Origin: Candidatus Latescibacterota bacterium
GTDB lineage: Bacteria > Latescibacterota > UBA2968
Reading direction: 5' to 3'
Assembly: GCA_965204375.1 (NCBI GenBank)
Contig: OZ241986.1
Location: forward strand, 4,480,001 to 4,544,000
Length of the DNA stretch: 64,000 nt
Of this stretch, positions 2,619 to 62,390 are shown piece after piece. Below the pieces are notes generated by a model. It searched no databases. It saw nothing but the letters and a program-made list of their open reading frames with translations, and was not told where the DNA came from. Within the stretch, counting starts at the first letter, position 1. Each line of letters opens with the position of its first letter. Position numbers and translations under genes: made by a program.

Positions 2619-2694
2619 TTATTTTTCCTAAAAAATTGTGAAATTTTTTATAAATTCAACGCTTGAGCAGAATTGTCGTCCGATGCAGTCCTGA

Positions 2695-3804
2695 TTAGAC
2701 TCCTTTTTCTTTTAAGCTTAGACGCTTTTTGAACTCACTCATTACATCCTCTGGTGACGGAATCTCGCCGCCAGAATCAATAAATAGTGTCGCAAGTGCC
2801 GCAATGTATAGTTCACCAAGTGCAACAGTGAGCGTAGTGGCGGTAGTTGCTGAAATCGCTCCTCCGGCGAAAGTGCCTGCAGCAGGAACGATCTTCAACA
2901 GATTGGCAACGATAGCCCGACCAGCAAAAGTAGCACCTGTTGTACCAGCCATAGTTGCAACGAGAGTGCTAAGGAAGGCGGCAGAGAGTTCCAGCCCGAA
3001 GGCAGACGATATACTGGCAAGCATTCCAATCTGAATGGGGATTAGGAGCGCTGCATCAGCAAATGGTATAGGTGCTGCGCCTGTCGCACCTGCCGCTACT
3101 GCCGCTGCAATGACAATCTTGTGTGCTTCACTCTTTTTCTTTTCGACCGACGCCTTTTGAGCAGCCGCAAATGCACGCCGAACAGCGTCCGGAATTACCT
3201 CCATCGTCAATTCCACAAGCTCAATCAAACCCATTGGTGGAATAACATGGCCATCGTCTAATTTCTCAGCTAAAGCGCGAACCCGGACAACATTTTTTGT
3301 CTCTGGTAGAAGGCGCTGAACTTCATCTCTAAAGCCCTGGTCAGCGCGTGCTTTTGTGATGACACCAATGACTGGCATATGGTTTGCCAAGGTCTTATGA
3401 AGCTCAATCTCTGCCTCTTCGACGCGCCTGCCATCTTCATGAATGCACAACCATGCAACGTGGATATGCCTTTTAAAGTCTGTTTCTCCTGCACGTGAGA
3501 TTACAAGTTGCTCCAGTTCATCTATGGTTTCTTTAAAATCTTTCAATTCCAGCCCTCTGGTATCCCATATCGCCAATGGAATACCTTCTTTTGTTATCTC
3601 ACGAGTAAATTGGGTAACCGGACGTCCTTGCCCTGTACTGGCCATCTTTCCTTGAAATATCTCATTTATCAATGTGCTTTTCCCGACGCCAGTGCGACCA
3701 GCAATCAGAACATTAACCTGGCCGAGTTCTCCTCTGGTTTTTTTTAATGCCTCTTCAATCATCTCCGCTATGTTTAAATCTGAAAAGTCCTTTGGGCGTG
3801 TCAT
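2695..3804 (-). CDS. TRAFAC GTPase (MMR_HSR1/YcjF-like) with hydrophobic DUF697-like C-terminus
   Basis: G1 GRTGVGKST, G3 DTRG, G4 TKAR; APIPFADAALL..IQ motif; AAGGAG RBS before ATG at 3804. Confidence 0.85.
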   Translation of the reverse strand: MTRPKDFSDLNIAEMIEEALKKTRGELGQVNVLIAGRTGVGKSTLINEIFQGKMASTGQGRPVTQFTREITKEGIPLAIWDTRGLELKDFKETIDELEQLVISRAGETDFKRHIHVAWLCIHEDGRRVEEAEIELHKTLANHMPVIGVITKARADQGFRDEVQRLLPETKNVVRVRALAEKLDDGHVIPPMGLIELVELTMEVIPDAVRRAFAAAQKASVEKKKSEAHKIVIAAAVAAGATGAAPIPFADAALLIPIQIGMLASISSAFGLELSAAFLSTLVATMAGTTGATFAGRAIVANLLKIVPAAGTFAGGAISATTATTLTVALGELYIAALATLFIDSGGEIPSPEDVMSEFKKRLSLKEKGV

Positions 3805-4158
3805 TGGATATTTCTCCTTAATAAACGTCATATGTGACTTCAAATCGACCAAGTTTAGGTTGTGCAATTAGACACACGTTTGCGTTAGTATAAAAAAAAT
3901 ATATATCATGTGCAACTTTGAAATTGTAAAACATCATACCATCGCTGTCTGGATCAATGGCCTTCACCAATGCATGCCATCGAACTCTGGTCCTGAGACA
4001 GGACCGATAAGACATCCGTGTAAAGACTTGTATAAGATTGTAAATCAAAAAATTTCAAATGATGTTTCTATTTAGAGTCAAAGAGGTTTCCAGACACCAG
4101 CTATGTTCAGCTATCTATATGAAAATGCCTCATATAGAGTGTCGCAGGTTAATCTCTA

Positions 4159-7100
4159 CTAATCATAAAAAATATCACGCTCAGCCTCACGCTCCGCTTC
4201 TCGTTCGTATCTTTCGGCAAATTCTCGCATAGCATCCGCAAAACGCGAATAGCCCTTAGAGCGAATAGCCTTAGCTTTGTCATGATTTAGCTGTGCAAGT
4301 TCGCGTTCCTCTCTTCCAGCAGTATAGCTATAAACGCCTCTTTGATTAAACAACTCCGTAGTGAACCCCGAGCGCATCTCTTCCGCATCCCTACCATCCA
4401 GCACCGAAGCGACAGCCTCGTGAATCCAAAGTCCATCAGGGCCATCAAGATCAGCGGGTGCATGTGTTAATATATGACCAATCTGAAGTTGTGCCACCTC
4501 CCCGTGTCCTGTCTCTTCAGTAATTCTCCTGGCCTCGTTTATCCAAGTGTTAAAGGCATCGACATCCAGCGTACCGTCGGGCAGAGTCCCAGGACACTTT
4601 TTCCACTCTCTCAGTAAATTATATGCGTTGCGGCCAAAATTCTGCTTTTGTTCATCCGGTTCAACATCTTCCTCTTCATCGTTCTTTGAATGAAAAACAA
4701 TCTTCACAATTTCTGCAAAGAAAGCTGGGTCTGAAGCAAGGTGTTTCTCAAGTGTAATTGGAGAACCGGAGGAGAACCGGTCTAACCAGGGTAAAAAGTG
4801 CCATTCGATTTTGAATAAGGCATCCTGGTCGGTATCTGGCGATTTTTGAAGGCGTTTGATTAATTCGACTGTAGTGTAGTAGTCCAACTGGTCAGGGGCC
4901 GACGAGGCTTCGAGCAAGGCTAACAATGCCTCTGTAGCAAGACTCACGTCGAACTGGTTATCGTATATCGCAGTTCTCGAAATACACTCGACGGCAGCAT
5001 TTGCTCGCCCATATTTGAGGAATTTTTGGATCGCAATCGTCGGATTTTGGTCAAAGCCTACTCTCGTCTTCTGCCAATAGAGCTTCTCATTTTGTTTGCC
5101 CAAATGTACGGAAACCCTATGCCAGACTTTTTCCTCAAAAGGCAAGAGCATGAGGAATGTAGCTTTTTGTTCTGCATTCCAATTTCTTTTAAGAACAGCG
5201 TCAACCCAGGTCCACTTAAGTTCTCGATACCGCATCCACACGAAGCCAGCTACAACCTGCCTCATCGTTTCATCCTCAGTATTCAGTTGCGTCGGTAGAA
5301 TCTCGTCCTCTACCTCCGTCGGGGCTATAACACCCAGCGCTCGTCCAACCTCATAGGGTGCCGGTACGCTTTGTGCAAACGCCAGTACGGCAGGCAAACC
5401 TCCCGTTTCAAAGATAGTTTTCACAGCAGACTGGCGGGCTTCGTCAAGACGTTTTTGTTGTTCGTCATAATCACTATTTTCGTCGAATAGATCGAAATCC
5501 CGATCACTAAAAAGATAGTGATACTTTAACTCCGGGGCTTGCGGCACCAACGCATTCGCGGTCTCTTCAATTTTTTTAACTACTTCCTCAGGAAGTGCCC
5601 AATCAGCGTCAGAAAACCTTCGGTGGTGTCGCACTAAACTTTCGAGTTTCTCCCAAATCGGGAGTCGTTCAGCCTCGGGTAATGCCACAACTTCTTCTGA
5701 TGTGAGATGGAGAAGAATTCTCTCCTGAGCAGGCTCTGACAAATCCGAAAGACGGTTTATCAGTTCACCTAATTTCTCAGTATCTTTCTTTCCGAGATCA
5801 ATCGCAAGTTCAGTGTAGGCTGTGATCTGTTCCCAATACTCGCTCAGGAGGACACTATTCTTCCAGTCGCGAGGAATATATTCTTGCCAGGTAGGACGAT
5901 GGCATCCGCTTGTAAATTCATGACTATGTGGTAAGAGAGATAAAAGCAGATGCCAGCCGATCAGCGGTTGTTCACGGAGCACAGTTTTAACCGCAGTCTT
6001 TCGTTCCTCAAAGGAGGCTACTGTCTGCACAAGCCACGGTATGAAGATGGTGGCTAACGAATTGGCGGGACGATTCCCCCAGTTTCCGCCCGGATCAATT
6101 GATGCAAGATCGGCAAGGATCAGCGCCACCCGCGACAGGTAATCGGGGTTCCAGACCAATCCTTCAAGTGCCCACAGAAGACCACTTATGTAAGTTCCAC
6201 CGTCAAAACTACCACTTCCTTCTTGAGCAAAAATCTCATGAAACGGAGTATTCTTCAGATCGACCAGAGCCAATTCGACCGCTTTGAGAAACTCGTCAGG
6301 CGCAGCTTCTGCCAGCAATGGTAAAAGCAAATCCAAGCTACTCCATTGGTCCCAACTTGCGTTGCGCAGCAAGCATCGAACAACACGATTAGCCGTGTTT
6401 TCAGCTTTATGGAGCGAACAAGAAGAAAGAAATTTTGGCCGACTCCCGACTAATGCGAGTGTTTCAGCAAGACCTTCTCTCAAAAGGCTGGAGTGTTTCA
6501 GGGTTTTGTTATGAATAGCGGCGGCGTATCGTTCTTCTTTCGGTAAGTCGAACTGTGGGTCCCGTTCTCCCAACACGACAACTGCAGTCTCTTCAAGCCT
6601 ATCCAGATCGTCATCCGTGATGCGATTGCCCAGTGCGTTCCACGCTTCACCACGCGCAACGAACCGCCACTTCTCATCGGATTGAATCAGGGGAGAGTCC
6701 GAGCGAATTACATCAGGTCTCAGAGTCTCGATCCACTCCCCGTATCCTTTTCCCTGCAACATCTCCAAAGCAGACCGATCCGCCTGATTTTTTGCATCCC
6801 ATTTTCCAGCAAGCCCGGCTTGTGCAAACCGATCTGCATTTTCCCAGTTCGCATACGGAGGCAGTGTCCCAAGGCCCTGTAAATGTCTCCTCAGAGCGGA
6901 AAGTCTATCTCCTCCTGCTCTCGCCAGTTCTTGAGCACGAATCTCTGGATATCCTGCTTCATTAAGTACTGCCTCGATCTGCGATTGCGTCGGGCTTCGT
7001 AGTTTGATGATTTCAGGGTTGTTGCCTGACCAAGCCCCACATAGTGGAATGATTACAGCATGTCCCTTCTGTCGGGCTTTTGACAGAAGGTGGGATCCCG

Positions 7101-7977
7101 CATCGGTCTCCAGTCCGAGCTGCGGATCAGCTACCAATACATGTGATGTTCGTAACTCCACGACGCTTAGCCAAGCGTCCTCTTCGTTGATGTAAAGACA
7201 TCGGTTGGTGTAGTTTTGCGCCATCTCCAGATCTATTGTCTCAAGATATGCCGCAACAAAATCGGCTACATCTTGACGGCTCTCGGCAAACAATAGCAGT
7301 GGCGTTTGAGATGTGTCTTCAAACAATTTTTGTAAGGCTTCGTAAGCATTGTCGCGGCCTAACGTGAATAACTTAGCAGGCAAGGGCGGATCGCTTTTGT
7401 CGCCTTCCAAACATATCAGATCCCAATGCTCAGATGGGGTAGTAATTGCGCCTAAATTGGAGGCAATGCCGATTTTTTTCGCTATCCACCTACCGATAGC
7501 TGGAAACTCTCTAACCCAATCGGCGAGTTTATCGCCGTCAATAATGTGAATCCGTTTCCAGCCTCTATCTTTTCTTTTTTCCTTCCATCTTGTTTGTCCA
7601 GGCTCATTCCATCCACCGGAAGCAGAAGATCGTGGCGTCACAAAAACAAATGATGCCTGTGATCGATCTGCCTTGGTAATCGCCGCTGTTCTTTTCTTAA
7701 AGTCCTCAGTCGCCTTGTTCTGCGGGTTTCTCTCTGTACTGATCTCCCAATACGATTTTCCTTTCGGAACGAATTCAAGAAACGACTCTTCGATTTCGAC
7801 GATCCCATCCCAACCCGGCTGATTAACCTTATCCCCGTAAGGAATGCGGCAAACATAGGGCGGCGGCTCCGATTGTTTCACAAGCCAATAGATCAATTCT
7901 GGGATAACTGCCTCGCTATCTCGAGTATCCGAGTATCGATCCAAATCGTTGACCGTAACGATATGGGTATGATCCAT
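4159..7977 (-). CDS. Large putative defence protein: restriction-endonuclease-like N-domain, degenerate NTPase-like region, ~900-aa helical body
   Basis: PGWDGIVE...WEIST...KATEDFKKRT nuclease-like motif; paralogous to 53570..56893; GAGGA RBS before ATG at 7977. Confidence 0.7.
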   Translation of the reverse strand: MDHTHIVTVNDLDRYSDTRDSEAVIPELIYWLVKQSEPPPYVCRIPYGDKVNQPGWDGIVEIEESFLEFVPKGKSYWEISTERNPQNKATEDFKKRTAAITKADRSQASFVFVTPRSSASGGWNEPGQTRWKEKRKDRGWKRIHIIDGDKLADWVREFPAIGRWIAKKIGIASNLGAITTPSEHWDLICLEGDKSDPPLPAKLFTLGRDNAYEALQKLFEDTSQTPLLLFAESRQDVADFVAAYLETIDLEMAQNYTNRCLYINEEDAWLSVVELRTSHVLVADPQLGLETDAGSHLLSKARQKGHAVIIPLCGAWSGNNPEIIKLRSPTQSQIEAVLNEAGYPEIRAQELARAGGDRLSALRRHLQGLGTLPPYANWENADRFAQAGLAGKWDAKNQADRSALEMLQGKGYGEWIETLRPDVIRSDSPLIQSDEKWRFVARGEAWNALGNRITDDDLDRLEETAVVVLGERDPQFDLPKEERYAAAIHNKTLKHSSLLREGLAETLALVGSRPKFLSSCSLHKAENTANRVVRCLLRNASWDQWSSLDLLLPLLAEAAPDEFLKAVELALVDLKNTPFHEIFAQEGSGSFDGGTYISGLLWALEGLVWNPDYLSRVALILADLASIDPGGNWGNRPANSLATIFIPWLVQTVASFEERKTAVKTVLREQPLIGWHLLLSLLPHSHEFTSGCHRPTWQEYIPRDWKNSVLLSEYWEQITAYTELAIDLGKKDTEKLGELINRLSDLSEPAQERILLHLTSEEVVALPEAERLPIWEKLESLVRHHRRFSDADWALPEEVVKKIEETANALVPQAPELKYHYLFSDRDFDLFDENSDYDEQQKRLDEARQSAVKTIFETGGLPAVLAFAQSVPAPYEVGRALGVIAPTEVEDEILPTQLNTEDETMRQVVAGFVWMRYRELKWTWVDAVLKRNWNAEQKATFLMLLPFEEKVWHRVSVHLGKQNEKLYWQKTRVGFDQNPTIAIQKFLKYGRANAAVECISRTAIYDNQFDVSLATEALLALLEASSAPDQLDYYTTVELIKRLQKSPDTDQDALFKIEWHFLPWLDRFSSGSPITLEKHLASDPAFFAEIVKIVFHSKNDEEEDVEPDEQKQNFGRNAYNLLREWKKCPGTLPDGTLDVDAFNTWINEARRITEETGHGEVAQLQIGHILTHAPADLDGPDGLWIHEAVASVLDGRDAEEMRSGFTTELFNQRGVYSYTAGREERELAQLNHDKAKAIRSKGYSRFADAMREFAERYEREAEREAERDIFYD

Positions 7978-7989
7978 CTTGTCCTCTAT

Positions 7990-8070
7990 TGGTTGTAACT
8001 TAACGACCATTGCCCCTTACTCAGATTTGGGTGGCAACGGAATATCGAACTATTTTCATTTGCCCAATTC
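7990..8070 (-). pseudogene. hsdS (type I R-M specificity subunit) relic
   Basis: Translates as K*K*FDIPLPPKSE*GAMVVKL, resembling the conserved HsdS IPLPP..EQ..IV.KL motif with stops. Confidence 0.55.
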
Positions 8071-8151: not shown

Positions 8152-8275
8152 TCATAAAGATTCAAGCAATTTTTGTGTGTTTTTATCGGACCAGCTCAAT
8201 TGTTGCGACAGCGTAGCAACTATTTCTCCTTTTGGAATGACGACTTTTACGCGAAGGTTGCGGTTGATGGCTGGA
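8152..8275 (-). pseudogene. DUF1016/YhcG N-terminal fragment
   Basis: RNLR...P..EIVATLSQQLSWS is the DUF1016_N motif; ORF stops shortly after. Confidence 0.6.
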
Positions 8276-8558
8276 ATTGGCGCATCAGATTGAGTTACTT
8301 CTTTGATTCCGCTGGATTGCGGCTCAAAATCATGCCGCAATGACAATCGCAAGATCAATATGAACAGCCTTTTTTCCCGCGATGCAGTAATTTCTAATAA
8401 AAAAGGGATGCGGATAGGTTCGCATCCCTTTGTCAATACAATCTTTATGGTTGGATACCGGATTGGGCGAGTTCGAGGAGGTCAAGCGGTGCGCTCACAA
8501 AACTCGTGCTGGAGAGGTTGTTTGAGAGGACTCAAGGGCAGAATGTGAGGCCAGTTCA

Positions 8559-8583
8559 ATTGTCGTATCAGTGATACGACAAT
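8559..8583. promoter_or_regulatory. Perfect 25-bp palindrome, putative repressor operator
   Basis: ATTGTCGTATCA G TGATACGACAAT (12-bp arms, 1-nt centre). Confidence 0.55.
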
Positions 8584-8710
8584 CTAGGAACCACACCAGA
8601 CGATTATTAAAAAATCAGAAAGGTGAGTGTAAAAGCAAAAAGACCTGTAGGCACAAAAGTCTGTACTATATTTTTTTAGGGACCTTACGCTTACAGGCTT
8701 ATTGGTAAGT

Positions 8711-8736
8711 AAAAAGGCTACCTTGTTCGGTAGCCT
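8711..8736 (-). terminator. Intrinsic terminator at left end of cassette
   Basis: Stem AGGCTACC/GGTAGCCT, 6-nt loop, T-run on minus strand. Confidence 0.7.
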
Positions 8737-8989
8737 ATTTGTTAAGTAAATCAAACATTTTATCGAAGAGCATTTTGATAATGCTTAGTAGTCCTACAAC
8801 AACCACGAAAATTACGCCTATTGTCCCTCCGTAGATCCAATTCTTTATTTTTTGGACCTCTTCTCTCGTGGCAAAATAATTGGTAAGTGTTTCTAGGGAG
8901 GTCAGGCGACGTTCGGTCTCAAGTTCTACACTTCTAGGGGCAGTCCGATTATCAGGATTATCAGGATTTGAGGAACTACTTTTATCCAC
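8735..8989 (-). CDS. Small coiled-coil protein with single C-terminal TM helix
   Basis: GTG start at 8989 with GGAGGG RBS, overlaps upstream stop; RLTSLET..FATREEV then hydrophobic helix. Confidence 0.7.
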   Translation of the reverse strand: MDKSSSSNPDNPDNRTAPRSVELETERRLTSLETLTNYFATREEVQKIKNWIYGGTIGVIFVVVVGLLSIIKMLFDKMFDLLNK

Positions 8990-9314
8990 GACCTTCCCTC
9001 CGTGCTTCAGCTCTATCCATCCAGTCCCATATAGTCCTATAACTATAACCAGAATAACTGCCATTTAACTTAAAGACAATACCATTAGCACCTTCAATAC
9101 GATTCGTTCCTTTAAGCCCTATGGAAGTTGCTACTTCATCTGAAATTTCTGTACTTGAAATAAGAAAACAATTATCTGCTATTCGGCAATAATCGTGGTA
9201 TGTATTCGCAATCTTCACTTTAACAGCTTCTTGGTTTGTTTCTGCTAAAATAATGACAAACGTGCTCCAATCTTTTTCAGATAGTAATATTCTCTCTAAT
9301 TGGCTTCTGTCCAT
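8982..9314 (-). CDS. Small putative ferredoxin-like (Cas2/VapD-like) protein
   Basis: GGAG-type RBS; C-terminal G.VFKL..SYSGY....WDWM motif shared with 49449..49751. Confidence 0.6.
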   Translation of the reverse strand: MDRSQLERILLSEKDWSTFVIILAETNQEAVKVKIANTYHDYCRIADNCFLISSTEISDEVATSIGLKGTNRIEGANGIVFKLNGSYSGYSYRTIWDWMDRAEARREGRG

Positions 9315-9421
9315 CTCCTATCTCCTCGCTCCATTTTTGACATCATGTCTTGTTTTGAAATGCTATTATAATATAAAGAAAACAGGGGACAATACAAATC
9401 GCCCTCGTTAATCACTCGATT

Positions 9422-9584: not shown

Positions 9585-10913
9585 GATAGCGTCCGTATAT
9601 TTCTGTAAAATTAAAAAAGTCACCGTAGCTCCGAGAAAAATCTTAAAATAGGGGTGAACGAAGTAATATAAACCCTAACCTTGGAGGCTACGATGACTCA
9701 CCCCAAAGATATACAAATAACCGCGCCAGAGCAATTCGTACTTTTGAATGACCCTGATTTTCTCAATCAGGCTGTGACCCGCTTCCTCCAGCAGTTTATA
9801 GAAGCGGAGATCACATCGTTTTTACAAGCAGACCCTTATGAGCGAACCACACAGCGAACGGGCTACCGTAACGGGTATAAACCTCGGATTGTCAAAACGC
9901 GCGTAGGTCGTATCGAGCTTAGCGTTCCTCAAGATCGAGAAGGGCGATTCCACAGTGGCTTATTTGCACGCTTTCAACGCAGTGAAAAAGCGCTTATTCT
10001 TGCCCTTCAAGAGGCGTATCTGCAAGGGGTCTCCACACGCAAAGTAACCAAGATCACAGAACAGTTATGTGGTACCAGCGTCTCAAAGTCTCAGGTCTCT
10101 GATCTGTGTCAAGAACTTGATGCAGACATAAACGCATGGCGCGATCGCCTCCTCGAACAGGCATACCCTTATCTGATCATTGATGCGACCTATCTCCACA
10201 TCCGCTCTGGCGGACAGGTCGCTACTCAAGGCGTCTTAATCGTTTCTGGGATCGCAGAGAGTGGACATCGAGACATCCTATCCATAGATGTGGCGCACAC
10301 TGAGACAGAAGCCACGTATGCTGATCTGTTTAAAGACCTTAAAAAGCGTGGGTTAAAGGGCGTGCAACTCGTCATCTCTGACCACCACGAAGGCTTACAA
10401 AACGCCATCAAACGACACTTTCAAGGGGCCTCTTGGCAGCATTGTCAAACCCATTTTCACCGAAACATCAAAGGCATCACACCCCCCAAGCATCAACGTG
10501 AGGTTGCCGAGGCACTTAAAGACGTTTTCAATGCACCAGATTACAACACCGCACAACAGCGCCTATCGCTACTGATGGACACCTATGAAGAGATACTGCC
10601 CAATGTGGTGGACAAAATAGACCAGGATATTATCCATTGTCTGGCCTGCTTCCACTTTCCAAAGAAGCACCAAAGACGCATCCGGACCACCAACCTGTTG
10701 GAACGACTCAATCGGGAGATCAAAAGACGGGCTGATGTGGTGCAGATCTTCCCCAATCAGGAGGCTTGTCAACGTCTGATCGGCGCCTTGTGTATGGAGT
10801 GGTCTGAAGAGTGGATCACCGGCAGACGCTATCTGGACATGAGGTATTTGAAATAAAAGCTCTGACCCCTATTTCACGGAACTACCTTTTTACAGAACTT
10901 TGGTCGGACTTGG
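9585..10913 (+). mobile_element. IS256-family insertion sequence (right end approximate)
   Basis: Left end GATAGCGTCCGTATATTTCTGTAAAA resembles the IS256 IRL; imperfect IRR TTTTACAGAACTTTGGTCGGACT; no TSD found. Confidence 0.8.
9681..10856 (+). CDS. IS256 family (Mutator-type) DDE transposase
   Basis: YRNGY.PR, GVSTRK, IDA, ISD.H.GL, WQHCQTHF, TTN.LERLNREIKRR motifs. Confidence 0.95.
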   Translation: MEATMTHPKDIQITAPEQFVLLNDPDFLNQAVTRFLQQFIEAEITSFLQADPYERTTQRTGYRNGYKPRIVKTRVGRIELSVPQDREGRFHSGLFARFQRSEKALILALQEAYLQGVSTRKVTKITEQLCGTSVSKSQVSDLCQELDADINAWRDRLLEQAYPYLIIDATYLHIRSGGQVATQGVLIVSGIAESGHRDILSIDVAHTETEATYADLFKDLKKRGLKGVQLVISDHHEGLQNAIKRHFQGASWQHCQTHFHRNIKGITPPKHQREVAEALKDVFNAPDYNTAQQRLSLLMDTYEEILPNVVDKIDQDIIHCLACFHFPKKHQRRIRTTNLLERLNREIKRRADVVQIFPNQEACQRLIGALCMEWSEEWITGRRYLDMRYLK

Positions 10914-45942: not shown

Positions 45943-48015
45943 TTGCCACAACTCGAACACATTGAAGTCATTGAAAAACGCCTCTGGGGAGCAGCCGATA
46001 ACCTGCGCGCCAACTCCACTTATGCCAGCAACGAATACTTTCTCCCGGTCATGGGCCTGGTATTCCTGCGCTATGCGTACAGCCGCTACCTATCTGTAAA
46101 AGACGCCATTGAAGCCAATCTGCCCACCCGCGGCGGTAAGAAACGAGCACTCACCAAAGAAGACTTCTCGCAGAAAAACGCCATCTACCTCCGGCCCAAC
46201 GCGCAATTTGACCACCTCGTCGCCTTGCCCGACAGCGAGGATCGCGCCAAAGCCGTCATCACAGCAATGGAATCCATTGAAGCCGACTACGAAAGCCTCC
46301 GGGGGGCACTGCCCAAAAGCGAATACCAGGAACTGGACAACGACGTTCTCGGCCAACTCCTCCGCACGCTCAACCCCGACGAACTAAAACAGGTCTCTGG
46401 CGATGTCTTCGGGCGCATCTACGAATACTTTCTCACCCAGTTCGCCGACGAAAAGGCTCACGACGACGGCGAATTCTTCACCCCCGTCTCACTCGTCTCC
46501 CTAATCGCCCATGTACTCGAACCCGACTGCGGCACAGTACTCGACCCGGCCTGCGGGTCTGGCGGCATGTTCGTGCAAAGTGCGCGTACCGTCGAGGAAC
46601 AAGGGCAACATCCCACCGAACAACTCACCTTCCGCGGCATAGAAAAAAACGCCACCACCATCCGCCTTGCCAGAATGAACCTCGCAGTGCATGGCCTTGA
46701 AGGCGACATCCGCCAGGCCATCACCTACTATGAGGACCCACACGAATTACTCGACAAAGCCGACTACGTAATGGCCAATCCGCCCTTCAATGTCGATGAG
46801 ATCGACGCCGACAAAGTCAAAACCGACCCACGCCTACCCTTCGGCCTGCCCGGCGTCAATCAAAACAACAAAGTCAGCAACGGCAACTACGTCTGGATCA
46901 GCTACTTCTATGGCTACCTGAACGAAACGGGCCGCGCAGGCTTTGTCATGTCCTCCCAAGCATCCAGTGCTGGCGGCAGCGAAGCCGAAGTGCGCCGAAA
47001 ACTGGTAGAAACCGACGATGTAGAAGCCATGATCGCCATTCGCTCCAACTTTTTCTACACCCGCACCGTCCCCTGCGAATTGTGGTTTCTCAACCGCGCC
47101 AGACCCGAAGCCCACCGCGACAAAGTACTGATGATCGACGCCCGCAACATCTATCGCCAGGTCACGCGCAAAATATACGACTTCAGCCCCGAACACGAAA
47201 AAAACATCCTCGCCATTGTCCATCTCTATCGCGGCGAAACCGAGCGATTCCGAGACCTGGTATTCAACTACCTGCAGAGCATTCTGGAAGAGAGCCATGC
47301 GTGCTTCAAGATCAACGATGGTGAAACCATCCACCCCCTACCCGACTTCGTCAACGCACTCATCCAATTGCACGACCTGATCGCGCTATCCCTGAAAACC
47401 CTGCCGAAAAACGGACAGCATACCGAAATCCTCACCGAGTACGACAAAGCGCGAACAGCGTTCCCCGAGGCCATTGAACAATTCCGCACCGCCATCACAG
47501 AAACCGCACCCAATACCAGCACCGACCTGAACAACCAGGTGGCAGAATTCGCCCCCCTGGTCGAAATTAGTCGCAACCTATCCGAACGCACTGACAGCCT
47601 CTACAAACTCGCCATCCGCGTAACCGATATCTGCGAAAAGGCAGGCACAACCAATAACAGAAGCGAAATCACCCGCGCCCGCAGAACAGCAGACGAGACG
47701 CGGCAGACCACAGTCGAACAACTCAAACAGGTAAACTACTTCTACCAGCAAGCGCAATGGCTCATTAGACGTTTCCCCGAAGCGAAACTATGCGACGTAG
47801 AAGGCCTGGTCAAACTGGTAGATCGCGCCGAAATCGAAGCCAACGACTGGAGCCTCACCCCTGGCCGCTACGTCGGCGTTGCACCCGAAGAAGAAGACGA
47901 AAATTTCGACTTTGCAGAGACCCTGCGCGAAATCCACGACGAAATAGAAGAACTCAACATCGAGGCCGTATCATTGGCAGCCACGATCAAGCGGAACTTT
48001 GAAACACTACTTTGA
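45943..48015 (+). CDS. hsdM: Type I R-M methyltransferase subunit
   Basis: LW.AAD.LR, GEFFTP, DPACGSGGMF, ANPPFN. Confidence 0.95.
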   Translation: MPQLEHIEVIEKRLWGAADNLRANSTYASNEYFLPVMGLVFLRYAYSRYLSVKDAIEANLPTRGGKKRALTKEDFSQKNAIYLRPNAQFDHLVALPDSEDRAKAVITAMESIEADYESLRGALPKSEYQELDNDVLGQLLRTLNPDELKQVSGDVFGRIYEYFLTQFADEKAHDDGEFFTPVSLVSLIAHVLEPDCGTVLDPACGSGGMFVQSARTVEEQGQHPTEQLTFRGIEKNATTIRLARMNLAVHGLEGDIRQAITYYEDPHELLDKADYVMANPPFNVDEIDADKVKTDPRLPFGLPGVNQNNKVSNGNYVWISYFYGYLNETGRAGFVMSSQASSAGGSEAEVRRKLVETDDVEAMIAIRSNFFYTRTVPCELWFLNRARPEAHRDKVLMIDARNIYRQVTRKIYDFSPEHEKNILAIVHLYRGETERFRDLVFNYLQSILEESHACFKINDGETIHPLPDFVNALIQLHDLIALSLKTLPKNGQHTEILTEYDKARTAFPEAIEQFRTAITETAPNTSTDLNNQVAEFAPLVEISRNLSERTDSLYKLAIRVTDICEKAGTTNNRSEITRARRTADETRQTTVEQLKQVNYFYQQAQWLIRRFPEAKLCDVEGLVKLVDRAEIEANDWSLTPGRYVGVAPEEEDENFDFAETLREIHDEIEELNIEAVSLAATIKRNFETLL

Positions 48016-48295: not shown

Positions 48296-48829
48296 ATGAA
48301 CGCCAAGAAAATCATTATTATCGCGGGGCCAAACGGAGCTGGCAAAACGACTTTTGCACAGGAGTATTTGCCCAACGAAGCGGATTGCCCTATTTTCGTT
48401 AATGCCGACCTGATAGCAGCGGGACTATCTCCCTTTCGTCCTGCTGACGCGGCCATCCGCGCCGGGCGGCTGATGCTGGAGGAAATTGACAACCACGCCC
48501 GCGCAGGCAGAACTTTCGCCATTGAAACGACGCTATCTGGACGGGGTTATGTGAGAAGGATCCGTCAATGGCGCGCTGATGGTTACACCGTAAAGCTCAT
48601 ATTTCTGTCTCTTGCAACGCCCGAAGAAGCAATCACGCGCGTAAAATCGCGCGTAAACCAGGGCGGGCATGATGTCCCAGAAGCCGTTATACGTCGTCGT
48701 TTTCACGCGGGCTTGCGGAACTTTCAGGACATTTACCGACATTGCGTTGACGATTGGTTTTTGTATAATAACAGTGGCACAATACCCATCCTTCTGGAGA
48801 AGAAAAACGATGATGAAACAACCGTCTGA
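48296..48829 (+). CDS. Zeta-toxin-like P-loop kinase
   Basis: AGPNGAGKTT, VNAD.IA, ETTLSG, RV.QGGH.VPE. Confidence 0.88.
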   Translation: MNAKKIIIIAGPNGAGKTTFAQEYLPNEADCPIFVNADLIAAGLSPFRPADAAIRAGRLMLEEIDNHARAGRTFAIETTLSGRGYVRRIRQWRADGYTVKLIFLSLATPEEAITRVKSRVNQGGHDVPEAVIRRRFHAGLRNFQDIYRHCVDDWFLYNNSGTIPILLEKKNDDETTV

Positions 48830-49001
48830 AAAAGAGCTAACAAAGCCCGACAATGATGAAGAAGGCATGACTGCCGCGCTTATACGAGCCGCCAAACGCG
48901 CGCACCAAATCGCGCATCAGACCGGCACCAAAGTTGTGGTCATGCGTGATGGCAAAGTCGTGGAAATTGATCCAGATCCAAAGATGTACAACGACATTTG
49001 A
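48810..49001 (+). CDS. Small partner protein of zeta-like kinase
   Basis: Overlaps kinase stop; AA.RA...G..VVV.RDGKVV motif. Confidence 0.7.
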   Translation: MMKQPSEKELTKPDNDEEGMTAALIRAAKRAHQIAHQTGTKVVVMRDGKVVEIDPDPKMYNDI

Positions 49002-49004
49002 GAT

Positions 49005-49145
49005 TGAAGGGCGAGTATGTAAAAGACAATGCCCACTTCAATTCTATCGAATCGTTGTGGGCACTGGTCAAGCGCGTATATGTCGGGATACACCACCACT
49101 GGAGGCGGTCCCTTGTTTTTTTACGTGCCGTTCAAAGTGCCTAAA
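49005..49145 (+). pseudogene. IS1595-family (ISXO2-like) transposase C-terminal relic
   Basis: GEYVKDNAHFNSIESLWALVKRVYVGIHHHW matches the H.N.IE..W...KR...G..H motif. Confidence 0.8.
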
Positions 49146-49459
49146 TAGGTCACTATACTGACTATTACACCAATACCGATAAGAATTATCGTTACAAGTT
49201 TAGTCACGAAGTCTCGCCTGTCTCTGGTGTCATCTTTTATTTCATTTTTATACTCTCTAATGGCTTCTTCTTTTGTTTGAATATCTCTGACTGTTTTTTC
49301 TACCTCATCAATTTTATCGCGTATTTTGTCAACTTTATCTTCAAGTCGGCGCAGCCCCTCCATAATCCAATTCAAAGGCCCCAATTTGTCGCCATCATCT
49401 TTGGGCAAGGCATTTGATTCGTTGGGTATTGTGGAATCATTTTCATGATCAGGCATCAT
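49121..49459 (-). CDS. Coiled-coil protein with single C-terminal TM helix
   Basis: Heptads LRRLEDKVDKIRDKIDEVEK; hydrophobic C-terminus; overlaps upstream gene. Confidence 0.75.
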   Translation of the reverse strand: MMPDHENDSTIPNESNALPKDDGDKLGPLNWIMEGLRRLEDKVDKIRDKIDEVEKTVRDIQTKEEAIREYKNEIKDDTRDRRDFVTKLVTIILIGIGVIVSIVTYLGTLNGT

Positions 49460-49751
49460 AAACCTCTAACCATTCCCAAAGGCTTTTCTTGGCATAACCA
49501 AAATGGCTACTAACGCGCATAACCACACCAGAGCCTATCTTGGAGTCCTCTTTGCCATATCCGAGTTTATTGCTTAATTCTCGCGCTGTCCCCTCATAGG
49601 TTAAAAAATAGATGTCCGGGGCATGTTCGTCATACACATGAACAGGGGGAAGCAGAGCCGCACTGTCTCGGTTTAATAATTTTTGCACCTCTTCCTTTAA
49701 TGCCAAAGATTCATCTTCGGTAAGGTGCACGGGCACAATAGCATAAAGCAT
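49449..49751 (-). CDS. Small putative ferredoxin-like (Cas2/VapD-like) protein
   Basis: AAGGA RBS; GVVMRV..HFGY...LWEWL motif shared with 8982..9314. Confidence 0.6.
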   Translation of the reverse strand: MLYAIVPVHLTEDESLALKEEVQKLLNRDSAALLPPVHVYDEHAPDIYFLTYEGTARELSNKLGYGKEDSKIGSGVVMRVSSHFGYAKKSLWEWLEVYDA

Positions 49752-50179
49752 TTTAATATTCCTTTGATTACTTGACTTTATGGCAGTAACTTTTTTGAAA
49801 ATATACGTACGTGAACAGACAAGGACAACCCAAAAGGACCATGTCCACGTACCTTTTTTGTGCTATTTTCTCCTCGTACAGAGCCAGACGTACCCGTTCA
49901 TCTGTACTACTTTCCTCAGATTCATCGTACATCGGTAAATGAATACCAGAGCATATTATACCCTAAGCAAAACCAAAGCAAATATCAGGCCAATATCACA
50001 GCATCGCGTGACAAATTGCATGGATAGCGATCAAATACCTTTATTATGCCTTCAATATGCTGTATTGCCCCCTTTTTTTCAACTCGAATTTACGGATCGC
50101 CTGTTTGGCGCAGAACAATCTCTGTATATTTTGAGCGATACAGGGGCGATAATGTGAAAGATATGTACCACTTGCCTAT

Positions 50180-50290
50180 ATGTCCGCTACGGTGTAAAAC
50201 GCTCAAATGAGATAGAGTATTTCTGCCCATATATGCAAAGGTGGCACGATTTCGCATGATTCGCTACATTTATTGCATAGGGAGATCGAA
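50180..50290 (+). pseudogene. Possible decayed RelE/HigB toxin 3' end
   Basis: VRY and LPIYAK fragments in shifted frames directly before the HTH antitoxin. Confidence 0.35.
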
Positions 50291-50291
50291 A

Positions 50292-50564
50292 ATGAATGAA
50301 AGAAATAGAAATATCGGTCAAGAGATTCTATCTGGCCTACAGGAAATCAAGCGCGGCGAACACGGTCGTATCATTACAGTACCTGATATTGCCCAAACGA
50401 GAGCGAAAGTGGGTCTTTCTCAAACTCAGTTTGCCCAATTGATGGGTGTATCTGTTCGAACGCTGCAAGATTGGGAGCAGGGTCGCCGTCGTCCATCGGG
50501 TGCTGCCCGGACACTATTGATAATCGCAGACAAAAACCCGCAAGCGATATTAGATGTGATGTGA
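50292..50564 (+). CDS. XRE-family HTH antitoxin (HigA/NadS-like)
   Basis: GLSQTQFA.LMGVSVRTLQDWEQGRRRPSGAA. Confidence 0.9.
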   Translation: MNERNRNIGQEILSGLQEIKRGEHGRIITVPDIAQTRAKVGLSQTQFAQLMGVSVRTLQDWEQGRRRPSGAARTLLIIADKNPQAILDVM

Positions 50565-50683
50565 GAACCTGTAATCCCTTTGCTGAGTATCTCCGGGAAT
50601 ATTGGGGGACTGTTGAAATTGAGCACCTATGGTAGAAGTGTGAAGCGGTGTATATTGTTGCCTCGTGGAAAAAAGGAGGATAT

Positions 50684-51178
50684 ATGAAAACTCAACAATT
50701 GAAAGTCTGGAGGTGGACATCAACGGGATTTCGAAGAACAGATGGTGCTTCGGTTATCGCAGAAGGGCAGACCACGACTTATGCGACATCGGCGGGGTGG
50801 CGTTTTCAAAACCGATCTGAAATGATTGCAGCAATAAAAGAAGGATTGCCAGTAGCGACATTTGACGCATTAAAAAATGCTATGGGCATTTCTGAACAAG
50901 CTCTGGCCTCTGTGACTAAAATTGCGATACATACACTGACACGTCGAAAAAAAGAAGGACGGTTGCATATTGATGAATCGGAACGACTGCTGCGTATTGG
51001 TCTGCTGTATGATCGGGCTGTAGAGGTCCTGGGAGGACAGGAAGTTGCTCGTCAATGGTTTGCAACGCCATTAACTGCCCTTGGGCGCGTTTCTCCACTG
51101 GATTATGCAGATACCGAACCAGGTGCTCGAGAAGTTGAAGACCTTCTGGGACGCATTGAGTACGGGGTATTTTCATGA
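50684..51178 (+). CDS. Xre/MbcA/ParS-type antitoxin (DUF2384)
   Basis: GLP, ESERLLR, A..W...P..ALG..SPL...TE.GAREVE.LLGRIEYG. Confidence 0.9.
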   Translation: MKTQQLKVWRWTSTGFRRTDGASVIAEGQTTTYATSAGWRFQNRSEMIAAIKEGLPVATFDALKNAMGISEQALASVTKIAIHTLTRRKKEGRLHIDESERLLRIGLLYDRAVEVLGGQEVARQWFATPLTALGRVSPLDYADTEPGAREVEDLLGRIEYGVFS

Positions 51179-59129: not shown

Positions 59130-62100
59130 ATGAACCCAACCCCCTACACCGAAGACACCCTCGTTCAACAGACCACAGCCGAGTACCTCGAACAGCAACT
59201 CGGCTGGGAATCCGTCTATGCCTACAACAGCGAGGACTTTGGGCCGGACAGTCTGCTCGGTCGCGCCTCTGACCGCGAAGTCGTACTCACGCGCTATCTA
59301 CTCACCGCGCTGCGAACGCTGAACCCCGGCCTGCCCGAAGACGCCTACAACGACGCAATCCGACAAATCACATCCACCACTGCTTCACAGAGCATCGTCG
59401 CAACCAACCGCGAAAAGTACGATTTCATCCGCAACGGCGTACCCATCAAATTTCGCAACGCCAATGGCGAATGGGTGCAGGAACGCCTCCGAATCTTCGA
59501 TTTTGAAACCCCGGGAAACAACCACTTCCTCTGCGTACGCGAACTATGGATAAAAGGCGACCTCTACCGCAGACGAGCAGACATCATCGGCTTTGTCAAC
59601 GGCCTGCCCCTCCTCTTCATCGAATGCAAAAACATCCACCGGGACCTGAAAGCCGCGTACAACGGCAACTACTCGGACTACCGCGACACCATCCCCCACA
59701 TCTTCCACCACAACGCCATCGTCCTGTTTGGCAACGGCGAAAAAGCAAAACTCGGCTCCATCACCAGCGAATGGGACCACTTCCACGAATGGAAACGCCT
59801 ATCCGAAGAAGAACCCGGCGTCGTCGATATGGAAACCCTCCTCAAAGGCGTCTGCAACAAACGCGACTTCATGGACATCATAGAAAACTTCATCCTCTTC
59901 GACGACACATCGGGTGAAACAAAGAAAATCCTCGCCCGCAACCACCAGTTCCTCGGCGTAAACCGCGCAATTGAAGCCGTGCGCGACCGCAAAGTACGCC
60001 AGGGCAAACTCGGCGTCTTCTGGCACACACAGGGCGCTGGCAAAAGCTACTCCATGGTACTCTTCACCCGCAAAGTACACCGCAAACTCGGCGGCAACTT
60101 CACCTTCCTCGTCCTCACAGACCGCACAGACCTCGACACGCAAATCTACAAAACCTTCGCTGGCTGCGGCGTCGTAGATCACGACCGAGACCCCTGCCGC
60201 GCAGCAGACGGGCCACACCTGAACCAGCTATTGACCGAACACAAATCGCACATCTTCTCCCTCATCCAGAAATTCAACCAGGAAGACATAGATCCCAAAA
60301 AAGGCTACACCCAGCGCGACGACATCATCGTCATCACCGACGAAGCGCACCGCACCCAATACGGCAAGTTAGCAGATAATCTGCGCGTCGCCCTGCCCAA
60401 CGCAGCCTACATCGGCTTCACCGGCACACCCCTGTTCAAAGACGACCAGATCACGCGCCGCGTCTTCGGCGAATACGTCTCCACCTACGACTTCCAGCGG
60501 GCAGTAGAAGACAAAGCCACACTACCCCTCTACTACGACGCGCGCGGCGACAAACTGGGCGTAGCCATTGATAATTTAAACGAACGCATCGCCGAAAAAT
60601 TGGAAGAAGCCGAAATCAGCGACATCGACGAGGAACAGCACCTCGAACGAGAACTCAAACGCGCCTACCACATCATCACCGCAGGCAAACGCCTCGACCA
60701 ACTGGCGCGGGACTTCACGCGACACTACTCAGCCGCCTGGGAAACCGGCAAAGCCATGCTGGTATGCATCGACAAAATAACCTGTGTGCGAATGCACAGA
60801 TTGATTGAATTCTACTGGCAAGAACACATCGGAAAACTGGAAACAAGGCTATCGCGAATAACGGACGAAGAGGAGAAAACAGACCTTCAGCGGAAGATCG
60901 AATGGATGCGCGAGACCCGCGCAGCAGTCGTAATCAGCGAAGAACAGGGCGAAATCGAAAAATTCAACAAATGGGAACTGGACATCCTCCCGCACCGCAA
61001 ACTCATCAAAGAAGGCATAGACTTGCCCGAAACCATGAGAAACAAACCGCAGTATCGCAACAAGCAACGCATGGAACTGGACGAAGCCTTCAAAGACGAA
61101 GAACACCCATTCCGCATCGCCATAGTCTGCGCCATGTGGCTAACGGGTTTCGATGTCCCGTGCCTATCAACACTCTACCTCGACAAACCACTCAAAGCAC
61201 ACACCCTCATGCAAGCCATTGCCCGCGCCAACCGCGTGAACGAAAACAAAAACAACGGCCTGATCGTAGATTACTGCGGCGTCCTCGTACACCTGCGCCA
61301 GGCACTCGCAACCTTCGCTGGCACGCAACCGGATGGAGATAACGCACCGACCGACCCCGCAAAACCCGAAGAAGAACTCCTATCAGACCTCGCCGAAGCC
61401 ATCGCCCTATTGCGAGACTTCCTCGACAAACGCAACGCACCACTGGATGACATCATTGAAAAAACGGGCTTCCTCCGCAATGCGGCTATCGTAGCCTGCA
61501 AAGAAGCCGTCAACGAAAACGACGAAACCCGCAAACGCTTCGAAGTCATGTGCCGCGAAGTATTCAAAAAGTACAAAGCCTGCGTCAACGTGCCAAACGT
61601 CAACATCCATCGCGAAGATCGCGACGCCATTGACATCGTGTACAAAAGCCTCCAGCAAGACCGTGTTCAGGCTGACATCTCAGAAATCATAATGGAATTA
61701 CAGCGGGTAGTAGATGCGGCCATTGAACCGAGGCTCAGTAATGTGGCTGAAAATCCGCATCCTGATGAAGATCGACGTCCTTACGACATCAGCCAGATAG
61801 ACTTCGAGCGTCTGAAGCGAGAATTCGCGCGTATCCAGGAAAAAAACACCACCGTTCAGAACCTCAGACAAGCAGTAGAACAAAAATTGCAACGACTATT
61901 GAAGCAAAACCCATTACGCACGGACTTTCAGCACCACTACGAAGAAATCGTCGCAGCGTACAACCGCGAAAAGGACCAGATAACAATAGAGCGCACCTTC
62001 GAAGCATTGCTCAAACTGGTGCAGGAATTGGATGAAGAAGAAAACCGGGCTGTTCGTGAGGGACTCGACGAAGAATCTCTCGCAATCTTCGACCTCTTAA

Positions 62101-62390
62101 AAAAACCCAACCTGAACGCGGGCGAAATCGCACAAATCAAAAAAGTGGCCGTCAGCCTGCTCAAAAAACTAAAAGTTAGCAAACTGCGCGTTCACCAATG
62201 GTGCGAAAAAGAAGCGACCCGGGACGCCGTGCGGACATCCATCTATGACTTTCTCTTCAGCGACGAAACCGGCCTCCCTCACAAATACACAGAAAAGGAC
62301 ATAAAAACAAAAACCGAAGACGTCTTCCGCCACATCTACCGAGCCTACCCCAAATTACCATCGCCATATTACGACAATGCTGCCGCTTGA
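59130..62390 (+). CDS. hsdR: Type I R-M restriction subunit
   Basis: RADIIGFVNGLPLLFIECK, HTQGAGKS, DEAHR, FTGTP, MWLTGFD, QAIARANR. Confidence 0.95.
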   Translation: MNPTPYTEDTLVQQTTAEYLEQQLGWESVYAYNSEDFGPDSLLGRASDREVVLTRYLLTALRTLNPGLPEDAYNDAIRQITSTTASQSIVATNREKYDFIRNGVPIKFRNANGEWVQERLRIFDFETPGNNHFLCVRELWIKGDLYRRRADIIGFVNGLPLLFIECKNIHRDLKAAYNGNYSDYRDTIPHIFHHNAIVLFGNGEKAKLGSITSEWDHFHEWKRLSEEEPGVVDMETLLKGVCNKRDFMDIIENFILFDDTSGETKKILARNHQFLGVNRAIEAVRDRKVRQGKLGVFWHTQGAGKSYSMVLFTRKVHRKLGGNFTFLVLTDRTDLDTQIYKTFAGCGVVDHDRDPCRAADGPHLNQLLTEHKSHIFSLIQKFNQEDIDPKKGYTQRDDIIVITDEAHRTQYGKLADNLRVALPNAAYIGFTGTPLFKDDQITRRVFGEYVSTYDFQRAVEDKATLPLYYDARGDKLGVAIDNLNERIAEKLEEAEISDIDEEQHLERELKRAYHIITAGKRLDQLARDFTRHYSAAWETGKAMLVCIDKITCVRMHRLIEFYWQEHIGKLETRLSRITDEEEKTDLQRKIEWMRETRAAVVISEEQGEIEKFNKWELDILPHRKLIKEGIDLPETMRNKPQYRNKQRMELDEAFKDEEHPFRIAIVCAMWLTGFDVPCLSTLYLDKPLKAHTLMQAIARANRVNENKNNGLIVDYCGVLVHLRQALATFAGTQPDGDNAPTDPAKPEEELLSDLAEAIALLRDFLDKRNAPLDDIIEKTGFLRNAAIVACKEAVNENDETRKRFEVMCREVFKKYKACVNVPNVNIHREDRDAIDIVYKSLQQDRVQADISEIIMELQRVVDAAIEPRLSNVAENPHPDEDRRPYDISQIDFERLKREFARIQEKNTTVQNLRQAVEQKLQRLLKQNPLRTDFQHHYEEIVAAYNREKDQITIERTFEALLKLVQELDEEENRAVREGLDEESLAIFDLLKKPNLNAGEIAQIKKVAVSLLKKLKVSKLRVHQWCEKEATRDAVRTSIYDFLFSDETGLPHKYTEKDIKTKTEDVFRHIYRAYPKLPSPYYDNAAA

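Follow-up and report, generated by a model that had tools for sequence, protein, structure and literature searches.

The 64,000-nucleotide stretch of a Candidatus Latescibacterota bacterium genome analysed here (assembly GCA_965204375.1, contig OZ241986.1, positions 4,480,001 to 4,544,000 of the forward strand; hereafter the window) encodes two large proteins, P0001 and P0002, which share a helical C-terminal body and carry unrelated N-terminal domains, a restriction-endonuclease-like nuclease in P0001 and a Schlafen domain in P0002. The two are probably single-chain anti-phage sensor-effector proteins of a large, mobile superfamily related to Avs8, in which an alpha-solenoid would bind a phage protein and self-association would activate the nuclease or the Schlafen domain with no ATP switch. 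Judged from its sequence relationships, the body is a deep branch related to Avs8 in which the NTPase is mostly dead or absent, a situation that parallels Avs7 and Dsr1.

The P0001 gene encodes a 1272 aa protein when read from the ATG at 7977, which is the start used in the database copy, and a 1283 aa protein when read from an in-frame ATG further upstream at 8010. We use P0001 for the product of the open reading frame (ORF) 4159..8010(-), with residues numbered on the 1283 aa frame, and P0002 for the product of 53570..56893(+). BLASTP aligned residues 390–1273 of P0001 with residues 168–1059 of P0002 at 385 identities in 900 positions (43%, 728 bits, E=0), and the N-termini of the two proteins did not align with each other. 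The initial annotation of the window had described two paralogues with a common C-terminal body of about 900 aa, and every motif that it listed is present in this alignment. When the whole 6.34-Mb genome was searched, P0001 and P0002 were the sole copies of the body. Closest homologues are up to 90% identical to P0001, and up to 97% identical to P0002 over its N-terminal 175 residues; set against such far closer relatives outside the genome, the 43% mutual identity indicates that P0001 and P0002 are old, separately acquired relatives and not the outcome of a recent duplication. The only family label of the body is phrog_18693 ('unknown function'), which both proteins matched, P0001 with residues 18–1278 against 4–1248 of 1258 (3e-159) and P0002 with the body only (2.7e-119).

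P0001 had no match in Pfam or NCBIfam, and a sequence search of solved structures returned nothing for P0001 or P0002 and two chance-level matches only for the family profile. An AlphaFold2 model of P0001 residues 12–480, built on 54 sequences, was confident, with a predicted local distance difference test (pLDDT) score of 92.1 and a predicted TM score of 0.89. Residues ~11–170 of the model adopt the PD-(D/E)xK restriction-endonuclease fold, with matches to AF1548 (1y88, Z 9.4, root-mean-square deviation 2.7 over 111 residues), the FokI cleavage domain (Z 8.8), BspD6I (8.7), MspJI (8.0), AspBHI (7.7), Can2 (7.1) and Card1 (6.8). Across the 54 sequences D68 is invariant, and conservation is at least 90% for E89 and K99. 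In the model D68 stands at the start of core strand two and E89 within strand three, which we take to be the usual catalytic positions of this fold. Residues 175–372 form an AAA+/STAND-like nucleotide-binding domain (NBD), whose top Foldseek match is Avs4 (8dgf_A, E 1e-5), with further matches to Avs3, Cdc6, RFC, EfAvs5, AVAST5 and SAMD9; VIA matched the same domain to ClpB, RFC and Cdc6 (Z about 7–8.4), to ZAR1, MalT and a STAND-TPR protein (Z 6.6–7.0) and to DnaA. None of the 54 aligned P0001-type proteins has the GK[ST] of Walker A where the P-loop would lie, and the aspartate of Walker B varies among them. The initial annotation had read the front of P0001 as a restriction-endonuclease-like domain followed by a degenerate NTPase-like segment; the fold and the conserved D68, E89 and K99 bear out the former, and the latter is correct because none of the 54 aligned family members has a Walker A motif.

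P0002 displays a SLFN_AlbA_2 domain at its N terminus (Pfam, residues 19–138, E 5.5e-13, 49.9 bits against a cut-off of 25.3), which is joined straight to the body, the STAND middle module of P0001 being absent; on this arrangement too the first reading was accurate. Within the motif E19-T-E21-W-L-E24-F-K26, the residues E19, E21, E24 and K26 are kept in 13/13 close homologues, and the E19–E24 spacing equals that of the E15/D20 residues mutated in RorSlfn5 (PMC13056530), the comparison being one of spacing between unaligned sequences. The model of P0002 has a pLDDT of 77.4; its body, mostly at 70–96, has a winged-helix-like start followed by a long solenoid.

The domain in front of the body is exchanged throughout the family. 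Of 152 sequences, 54 have a pre-body region of ~287 aa and 53 one of ~372 aa, as in P0001, while the others fall into many small classes. Sixteen representatives with other N-termini were searched with Pfam; 13 have a Pfam domain at the front and 3 have none, the domains belonging to 12 families, namely SIR2_2 (twice), SMEK_N, PNP_UDP_1, FRG, NNH5, GT4-conflict, SLFN_AlbA_2, Abi_C, TIR_2, DUF4062, Metallophos and Trypsin_2. PADLOC models (pAgo-associated SIR2, bSEFIR, the CBASS PNP effector and RT-protease) matched N-termini and never the body. In the Metallophos, SIR2 and trypsin forms the P0001 middle module is kept and only the first 140–180 residues are replaced. Junctions lie at P0001 residues ~385–398, or at ~141–182 where the middle module is kept, and these two sites define three modules: an effector, an optional dead NBD and the body. 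The ~287 aa N-terminus, which is the commonest class (alignment of 47 proteins, e.g. P0158), had no match in Pfam or PADLOC; from its consensus, GGGG..FE ... TDD ... QIKHS, it looks like another PD-(D/E)xK (D...QxK) nuclease. The earlier proposal of a conserved sensor with swapped effectors, as in Avs/STAND proteins, is strongly supported by the 12 Pfam front families and by the STAND fold of the P0001 middle module.

The family is large and widely spread. Among 1.84 billion representatives, the P0001 body matched 5715 clusters at 50% identity with E<=1e-3, 4584 with E<=1e-10 and 2907 with E<=1e-30. A word-indexed search gave 1322 matches among 8000 candidates scored, all of them 'hypothetical' and devoid of Pfam domains, from Firmicutes, Proteobacteria, Verrucomicrobiota, Gemmatimonadota and others. 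In a one-genome-per-species collection, at least 595 stretches hold relatives (595 of the 600 pattern-matched stretches listed), in bacteria and archaea; among the matches listed, Methanoperedens and a Methanosarcinales archaeon represent the archaea, and the nearest loci come from Latescibacterota metagenome-assembled genomes. P0001-type homologues with 60–90% identity occur in Desulfitobacterium, Acetobacterium, Vibrio, Shewanella, Idiomarina and Verrucomicrobiota, and members from unrelated phyla are 60–70% identical to each other. In a sample of Enterobacterales, 11 of 401 genomes have the body family. Homologues occur on conjugative plasmids and in transposon cargo, one of them alone on a conjugative Shewanella plasmid. 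A helix-turn-helix (HTH)-extended homologue lies on the Rhizobium plasmid NZ_CP022669.1; it has 1372 aa, is full-length at 31% identity with an extra N-terminal stretch, and is followed by a 1281 aa hypothetical gene (locus L004, 5656–13683), with Mu-transposase, TniB and recombinase genes adjoining. A phage genome collection gave a single weak partial match, and hence no evidence there, despite the PHROG label, that phages carry the family.

As Pfam, NCBIfam and PADLOC 2.0 hold no model that covers the body, annotation pipelines built on those libraries would miss the family. Matches in the ESM Atlas are unnamed 'hypothetical protein' clusters only. We found no earlier description of the body family in the literature; the supplementary tables of 10.64898/2026.01.04.697583 and PMC13056530, which were out of reach, may list these proteins.

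Among described sensors, that of Avs8 is a remote relative of the body. Avs8 pairs Avs8A with Avs8B in a two-gene operon. Two preprints equate PD-lambda-4A with Avs8, which cleaves DNA once it has bound an HK97-fold major capsid protein; Avs8A, an Mrr nuclease combined with a P-loop NTPase, is activated by the lambda capsid protein gpE (10.1101/2025.07.02.662641). We built an Avs8 profile from eight homologues found with the PADLOC PD-Lambda-4_A model in the 401 Enterobacterales genomes. Compared with this profile by hhalign, the P0001 family reached a probability of 96.4% (E 1.3e-9) over 864 co-linear columns, which run from the post-nuclease linker through the NBD and the winged helix to the sensor and place the Avs8 P-loop opposite the dead P-loop of P0001. 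The P0002 set scored 96.3% (E 1.7e-9) over 633 columns, with P0002 177–890 aligned to 430–1126 of the first Avs8 homologue, and the ~287 aa class likewise scored 96.3%. PADLOC-verified sensors served as controls, with probabilities of 0.3% (Dsr1) and 0.4% (Dsr2). P0001 and Avs8 thus have the same order of parts (PD-(D/E)xK nuclease, STAND NBD, winged helix, helical sensor) and similar lengths, 1272 aa against a PADLOC model of 1283 positions, while P0002 and the commonest class match Avs8 by profile in the winged helix and the sensor. By fold, P0001 also resembles STAND NTPases (AVAST) as a whole, with NBD, helical domain, winged helix and repeat sensor; P0002 has the winged helix and the sensor only. 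Like the body family, Avs8 has homologues in which the N-terminal domain is swapped. Three of the eight (L089, L091 and L092) match the family model only from position ~165–222, and L091 and L092 begin with an alpha/beta-hydrolase-like 'FVHGLGG' motif, which indicates that Avs8 itself swaps effectors.

Avs8 and the body family are nevertheless distinct. The Walker A motif GLSG[VL]GK[TS] is intact in 7/7 Avs8 homologues that cover the site, as against 0/54 P0001-type proteins, and the NBD as a whole is missing from P0002 and from most of the other architectures. The Mrr-type nuclease of Avs8 is replaced by a Schlafen domain in P0002, and the PADLOC hidden Markov model of the Avs8 family fails on both P0001 and P0002. 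Among the 401 Enterobacterales genomes Avs8 occurs in 8, and the sole genome shared with the body family has them at separate loci. Degenerate Walker motifs are reported for one Avs8 homologue, KpAvs8, in a survey whose accessible text makes no mention of NTPase-less Avs8 relatives (10.64898/2026.01.04.697583). The qualification 'undescribed' in the initial annotation therefore holds in that no Pfam, NCBIfam or PADLOC model lies over the body, and fails in that the body is remotely homologous to the winged helix and sensor of Avs8 and that the concept has been published for Avs7 and Dsr1.

In that published case, the Avs7 sensor is common to NTPase-less proteins such as Dsr1 (10.64898/2026.01.04.697583). 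As in the body family, one helical sensor stands behind a STAND module or directly on effectors such as SIR2, with many N-termini and wide horizontal spread; unlike P0001, SeAvs7 has a working Walker A (Thr291/Lys292). Identity of the body with the Dsr1 sensor, and hence with that of Avs7, was rejected on the control comparison with three PADLOC-verified Dsr1 proteins (E 0.21), in which the alignment had 3 rows and Avs7 was represented through Dsr1 only. The SIR2-plus-body protein P0142 matched no PADLOC Dsr1 model. The Dsr2 sensor was rejected as well, there being no detectable homology to two PADLOC-verified Dsr2 proteins. In its design DSR2 is close to P0002, as it is a single chain with an N-terminal effector (SIR2 in DSR2), a long alpha-solenoid sensor and no NTPase, and it senses the phage tail tube protein.

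For P0002 a second comparison is offered by bacterial Schlafen domains, which are tRNA-cleaving defence effectors mounted on diverse sensors; pSlfn proteins cleave tRNA once the fused sensor binds a phage protein (PMC13056530; 10.64898/2026.05.29.728809). P0002 resembles pSlfn proteins (e.g. pSlfn5; SLFN-pAgo) in that SLFN_AlbA_2 sits on a large putative sensor among defence genes. The pSlfn sensors published are Ig-like, histidine-kinase, DUF262 and Argonaute; a solenoid of ~900 aa is not named in the accessible part of the report and may be among its 1,020 'unannotated fusions' (PMC13056530).

From these features we infer a defence function, with the following course of events. The solenoid would wrap a conserved protein that the infecting phage produces; binding would rearrange P0001 or P0002, drive self-association and gather the N-terminal domains. 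The PD-(D/E)xK nuclease of P0001 would then cut DNA, the Schlafen domain of P0002 would cut tRNA or other RNA, and the cutting of either would abort the infection. P0002 would form one layer of a defence island, being co-transcribed within the operon hsdM ... hsdS-P0002-PIN-HipA-like-HIRAN-hsdR. By analogy with Avs8 the ligand might be a capsid protein, a guess that we regard as rather doubtful. Somewhat less doubtful, and still tentative, is the idea that the family is an ATPase-free STAND branch, in which the winged helix and sensor of an Avs8-like ancestor came to drive at least 12 effector types directly, from nuclease and Schlafen RNase through SIR2, TIR and PNP to protease, phosphoesterase and glycosyltransferase, assembly would proceed with no nucleotide switch, a subset would be standing cargo between hsdS and hsdR, and the Schlafen subclade would perhaps control a PIN protein.

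Several observations weigh against an anti-phage sensor-effector family related to Avs8. Foldseek and VIA searches with the body retrieved generic solenoids only (karyopherins, CAND1, Pds5, PP2A-A), with Foldseek TM scores of 0.09–0.17 and a best VIA Z of 8.1, which is below the level that the tool treats as meaningful for helical repeats. The homology between the body and Avs8 is remote, visible profile-to-profile only and marginal in pairwise BLAST; the three hhalign comparisons share one body and hence are not independent. The PADLOC PD-Lambda-4_A model (PDLC03991) matched P0001 at E 0.0064 only, with 12.2 bits over 77 residues, albeit co-linearly; it did not match P0002 at E<=1, nor was a match obtained at that level in a genome with a family member. 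Avs8A is reported to need ATP in vitro (10.1101/2025.07.02.662641). The Schlafen part of the P0002 model has a pLDDT below 50, too poor for a three-dimensional reading of the active site. With regard to context, P0001 lies outside any obvious defence island, with a GTPase/DUF697 gene, small ORFs and a transposase as neighbours, and BLAST with the HsdM, HsdS and HsdR of the window found no type I restriction-modification (R-M) gene in 64 of 80 loci homologous to P0002. PADLOC, run on the 116 nearest-neighbour ORFs of 29 loci, matched mad2 (5), MTase_I (4), REase_I (3), Specificity_I (3) and PDC-S05 (3), counts that are weak since the test covers top families only and has no matched control. As for the fold searches with the body, the rows shown include no defence protein, which is no proof that the fold differs from that of any family; the SeAvs7 entries 9YIX, 9N01 and 9N00 appear in no search output and are possibly missing from the copies searched.

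The position of P0002 raises the possibility of a different mode of action. PrrC is a latent anticodon nuclease within the EcoprrI type I R-M locus, set free once the R-M enzyme has been disabled by an anti-restriction factor of a phage. Instead of sensing a phage structural protein, P0002 and further copies found between hsdS and hsdR could likewise be guards, the solenoid docking on or monitoring the R-M complex and the RNase being freed upon anti-restriction. The P0002 gene, which encodes a putative latent RNase, sits exactly between hsdS and hsdR, its start overlapping the hsdS stop by 4 nt. Among the 80 homologous loci, 16 have hsdM, hsdS or hsdR in their flanks (9/44 among the loci of at least 15 kb), and in each of the 7 loci with all three genes the order is hsdM-hsdS-gene-hsdR. 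The 16 loci come from distant phyla, one archaeon included (Syntrophaceae, a Methanosarcinales archaeon, Anaerolineae, Desulfuromonas, Spirochaetaceae, Bacteroidales, Belliella and Cryosericum, among others), and comprise several N-terminal classes; these classes were assigned by best BLAST match, five 'Metallophos+mid' labels being probably due to the shared middle module, four loci unparsed and ten without an N-terminal extension (fragments or short forms). Schlafen modules, which cleave tRNA elsewhere, are also known to be exchanged with type I R-M specificity subunits (10.64898/2026.05.29.728809). Despite this placement, we consider a guard of this kind unlikely. Most members of the body family, P0001 and the homologues that stand alone on plasmids among them, are outside R-M operons; the body has a homologue, the Avs8 sensor, which binds a capsid protein directly; PrrC differs from P0002 in size and architecture, and neither protein matched a PADLOC PrrC model at E<=1. 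Furthermore, R-M operons are known landing sites of unrelated defence cargo, and toxin-antitoxin-like genes are present in this same operon, which is indeed a landing pad for several small modules (Table 1). The association with type I R-M loci proposed in the initial annotation is consequently true of P0002 and of the 16 homologous loci, and does not extend to P0001 or to most family members.

The same annotation had placed both genes directly downstream of hsdS, and only the P0002 gene is. Upstream of P0001 (8011–9680), tblastn with the HsdS of the window found nothing, the stop-to-stop frames held nothing HsdS-like, and none of the 20 matches given by Pfam Methylase_S in the whole genome (E<=1) falls in this interval. 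An hsdS remnant upstream of P0001 was rejected on these searches and on a Pfam search of the frame at 8152–8481; the idea that this 109 aa frame is a DUF1016/YhcG remnant found no support in that search either. The genome is unusually rich in type I R-M specificity genes, with the 20 Methylase_S matches lying at more than 10 places in 6.3 Mb; by a rough estimate, such a match would still be rare in a random 19-kb stretch.

Two readings of the proteins themselves remain to be set against an anti-phage role. The body family could be non-immune, the solenoid serving as a scaffold or regulator (e.g. transcription-linked, or a housekeeping adaptor) and the N-termini acting in ordinary nucleic-acid or nucleotide metabolism. 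HEAT/ARM solenoids are generic scaffolds, P0001 has no defence neighbours, and distant plasmid homologues in Rhizobium, Aminobacter, Thalassospira and Acetobacter, which are N-terminally extended, are annotated as 'helix-turn-helix transcriptional regulator'. We find this very improbable, for the fused domains (SIR2, TIR, PNP, trypsin, SMEK, NNH5, GT4-conflict, Abi_C, Schlafen and restriction endonuclease) are the repertoire of conflict systems, and the cross-phylum identity, the occurrence on conjugative plasmids and in transposon cargo and the sporadic presence, with two copies in the genome studied here, fit mobile accessory genes rather than housekeeping ones. Least credible of all is that P0001 is a decayed, non-functional Avs8-like gene unable to bind ATP, only its ATP-competent relatives being at work, as the missing Walker A, the variable Walker B aspartate, the ATP dependence of Avs8A and a nearby insertion sequence could suggest: the frame is intact over 1272 codons, the nuclease residues are conserved, the loss of Walker A is common to all 54 members and, together with homologues that are 60–90% identical, argues for purifying selection on the dead-NBD form, and the published Avs8 models with target proteins include the Walker-degenerate KpAvs8 (10.64898/2026.01.04.697583).

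The features discussed are collected in Table 1. GC content is 45.5–47.6% in the cargo between hsdM and hsdR and 51–55% in hsdM and hsdR, and the P0001 and P0002 cargo regions are both lower in GC than their surroundings.

Table 1. Positions in the window of the P0001 and P0002 genes, their parts and the neighbouring genes.
Feature	Position	Strand	Description
P0001 gene	4159..7977	-	1272 aa from ATG at 7977; nuclease, dead STAND NBD, winged helix, alpha-solenoid (putative sensor)
P0001 N-terminal PD-(D/E)xK (Mrr/Cap4-like) nuclease-fold domain	7471..7977	-	residues ~12–180; assigned from fold and conserved residues
P0001 middle module	6844..7470	-	residues ~181–389; pseudo-NTPase with AAA+/STAND-like nucleotide-binding and helical domain, Walker A lacking
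P0001 shared body	4162..6843	-	residues 390–1283; winged-helix-like start, then alpha-solenoid
IS256/Mutator-family transposase	9681..10856	+	~1.7 kb upstream of P0001 and separate from it; marks mobile, lower-GC surroundings
hsdM	45943..48015	+	type I R-M operon of P0002
Cargo between hsdM and hsdS	48296..52024	+	zeta-toxin-like AAA 48296–48829, HTH/MqsA-like 50241–50564, Xre/MbcA/ParS-type antitoxin 50648–51178, DUF488 51359–52024
hsdS	52521..53573	+	4-nt overlap of its stop with P0002 start
P0002 gene	53570..56893	+	1107 aa; Schlafen/AlbA_2 domain, shared body, C-terminal tail
P0002 SLFN_AlbA_2 domain	53624..53983	+	residues 19–138; Pfam match
P0002 shared body	54071..56746	+	residues 168–1059; winged-helix-like start and HEAT/ARM-like solenoid
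P0002 C-terminal tail	56747..56890	+	residues 1060–1107 (48 aa), past the similarity to P0001; long helix, low-confidence end
PIN-domain gene	56890..57279	+	4-nt overlap of its start with P0002 stop
HipA_C-like kinase gene and HIRAN-domain gene	57338..58267 and 58264..59016	+	further cargo between hsdS and hsdR
hsdR	59073..62390	+	same operon

In the operon of P0002, no RES toxin was seen beside the Xre/MbcA/ParS-type antitoxin gene, and immediately 3' of hsdR, at 62442–62798(+), stands a gene whose product is a 23S rRNA-intervening-sequence protein (PF05635, E 9.6e-26). Around P0001, the gap towards the transposase gene contains at 8152–9317(-) the 109 aa stop-to-stop frame mentioned above, a 109 aa ORF with a hydrophobic C terminus and a 110 aa ORF, none of which could be assigned to a family. 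Downstream of P0001 and on the same strand (1356–3867) are the GTPase (MMR_HSR1)/DUF697 gene and a 420 aa ORF that matched nothing in Pfam; the 80 homologous loci, which were chosen by likeness to P0002, contain neither of these two.

The PIN gene that follows P0002 has counterparts elsewhere. In two other Latescibacterota loci, both devoid of R-M genes, a PIN homologue stands directly 3' of the SLFN-type gene (L011, 11246–11608; L067, 11276–11638), and no VapB-like antitoxin gene precedes the PIN gene in any of the three loci. The acidic residues D5, E46, D94 and D113 are intact in the PIN protein of the window. A complex prediction of P0002 residues 250–1107 with this protein scored 0.54, the best control scoring 0.01, with at least 91% of contacts in agreement between runs and a partner pLDDT of at least 83. 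This is weak support: the 0.54 mark is reached by 58/80 solved complexes and 2/110 mismatched pairs, of which 7/80 and both mismatches lie at or below 0.60. On the model, the PIN RNase may be an accessory partner of P0002, and the Schlafen subclade may control this translationally coupled RNase, perhaps through the extra C-terminal tail.

For receptors of the STAND/NLR type, the usual explanation is a switch, driven by ATP, that turns monomers into oligomers. The body family appears to be one sensor lineage, tied to Avs8, that mostly does without such a switch and yet bears the hallmarks of immunity, namely effector shuffling, horizontal spread, carriage on plasmids and insertion in R-M operons. 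If this holds true, the nucleotide switch thought to be central to NLR-like receptors would be dispensable on a large scale. P0001 and P0002 constitute a natural pair within one genome, in which the same kind of sensor is coupled to a predicted DNase in one protein and to a predicted Schlafen RNase in the other, and this pair could be used to address how activation proceeds without an NTPase, which ligand is sensed and why genes of this family settle between hsdS and hsdR.

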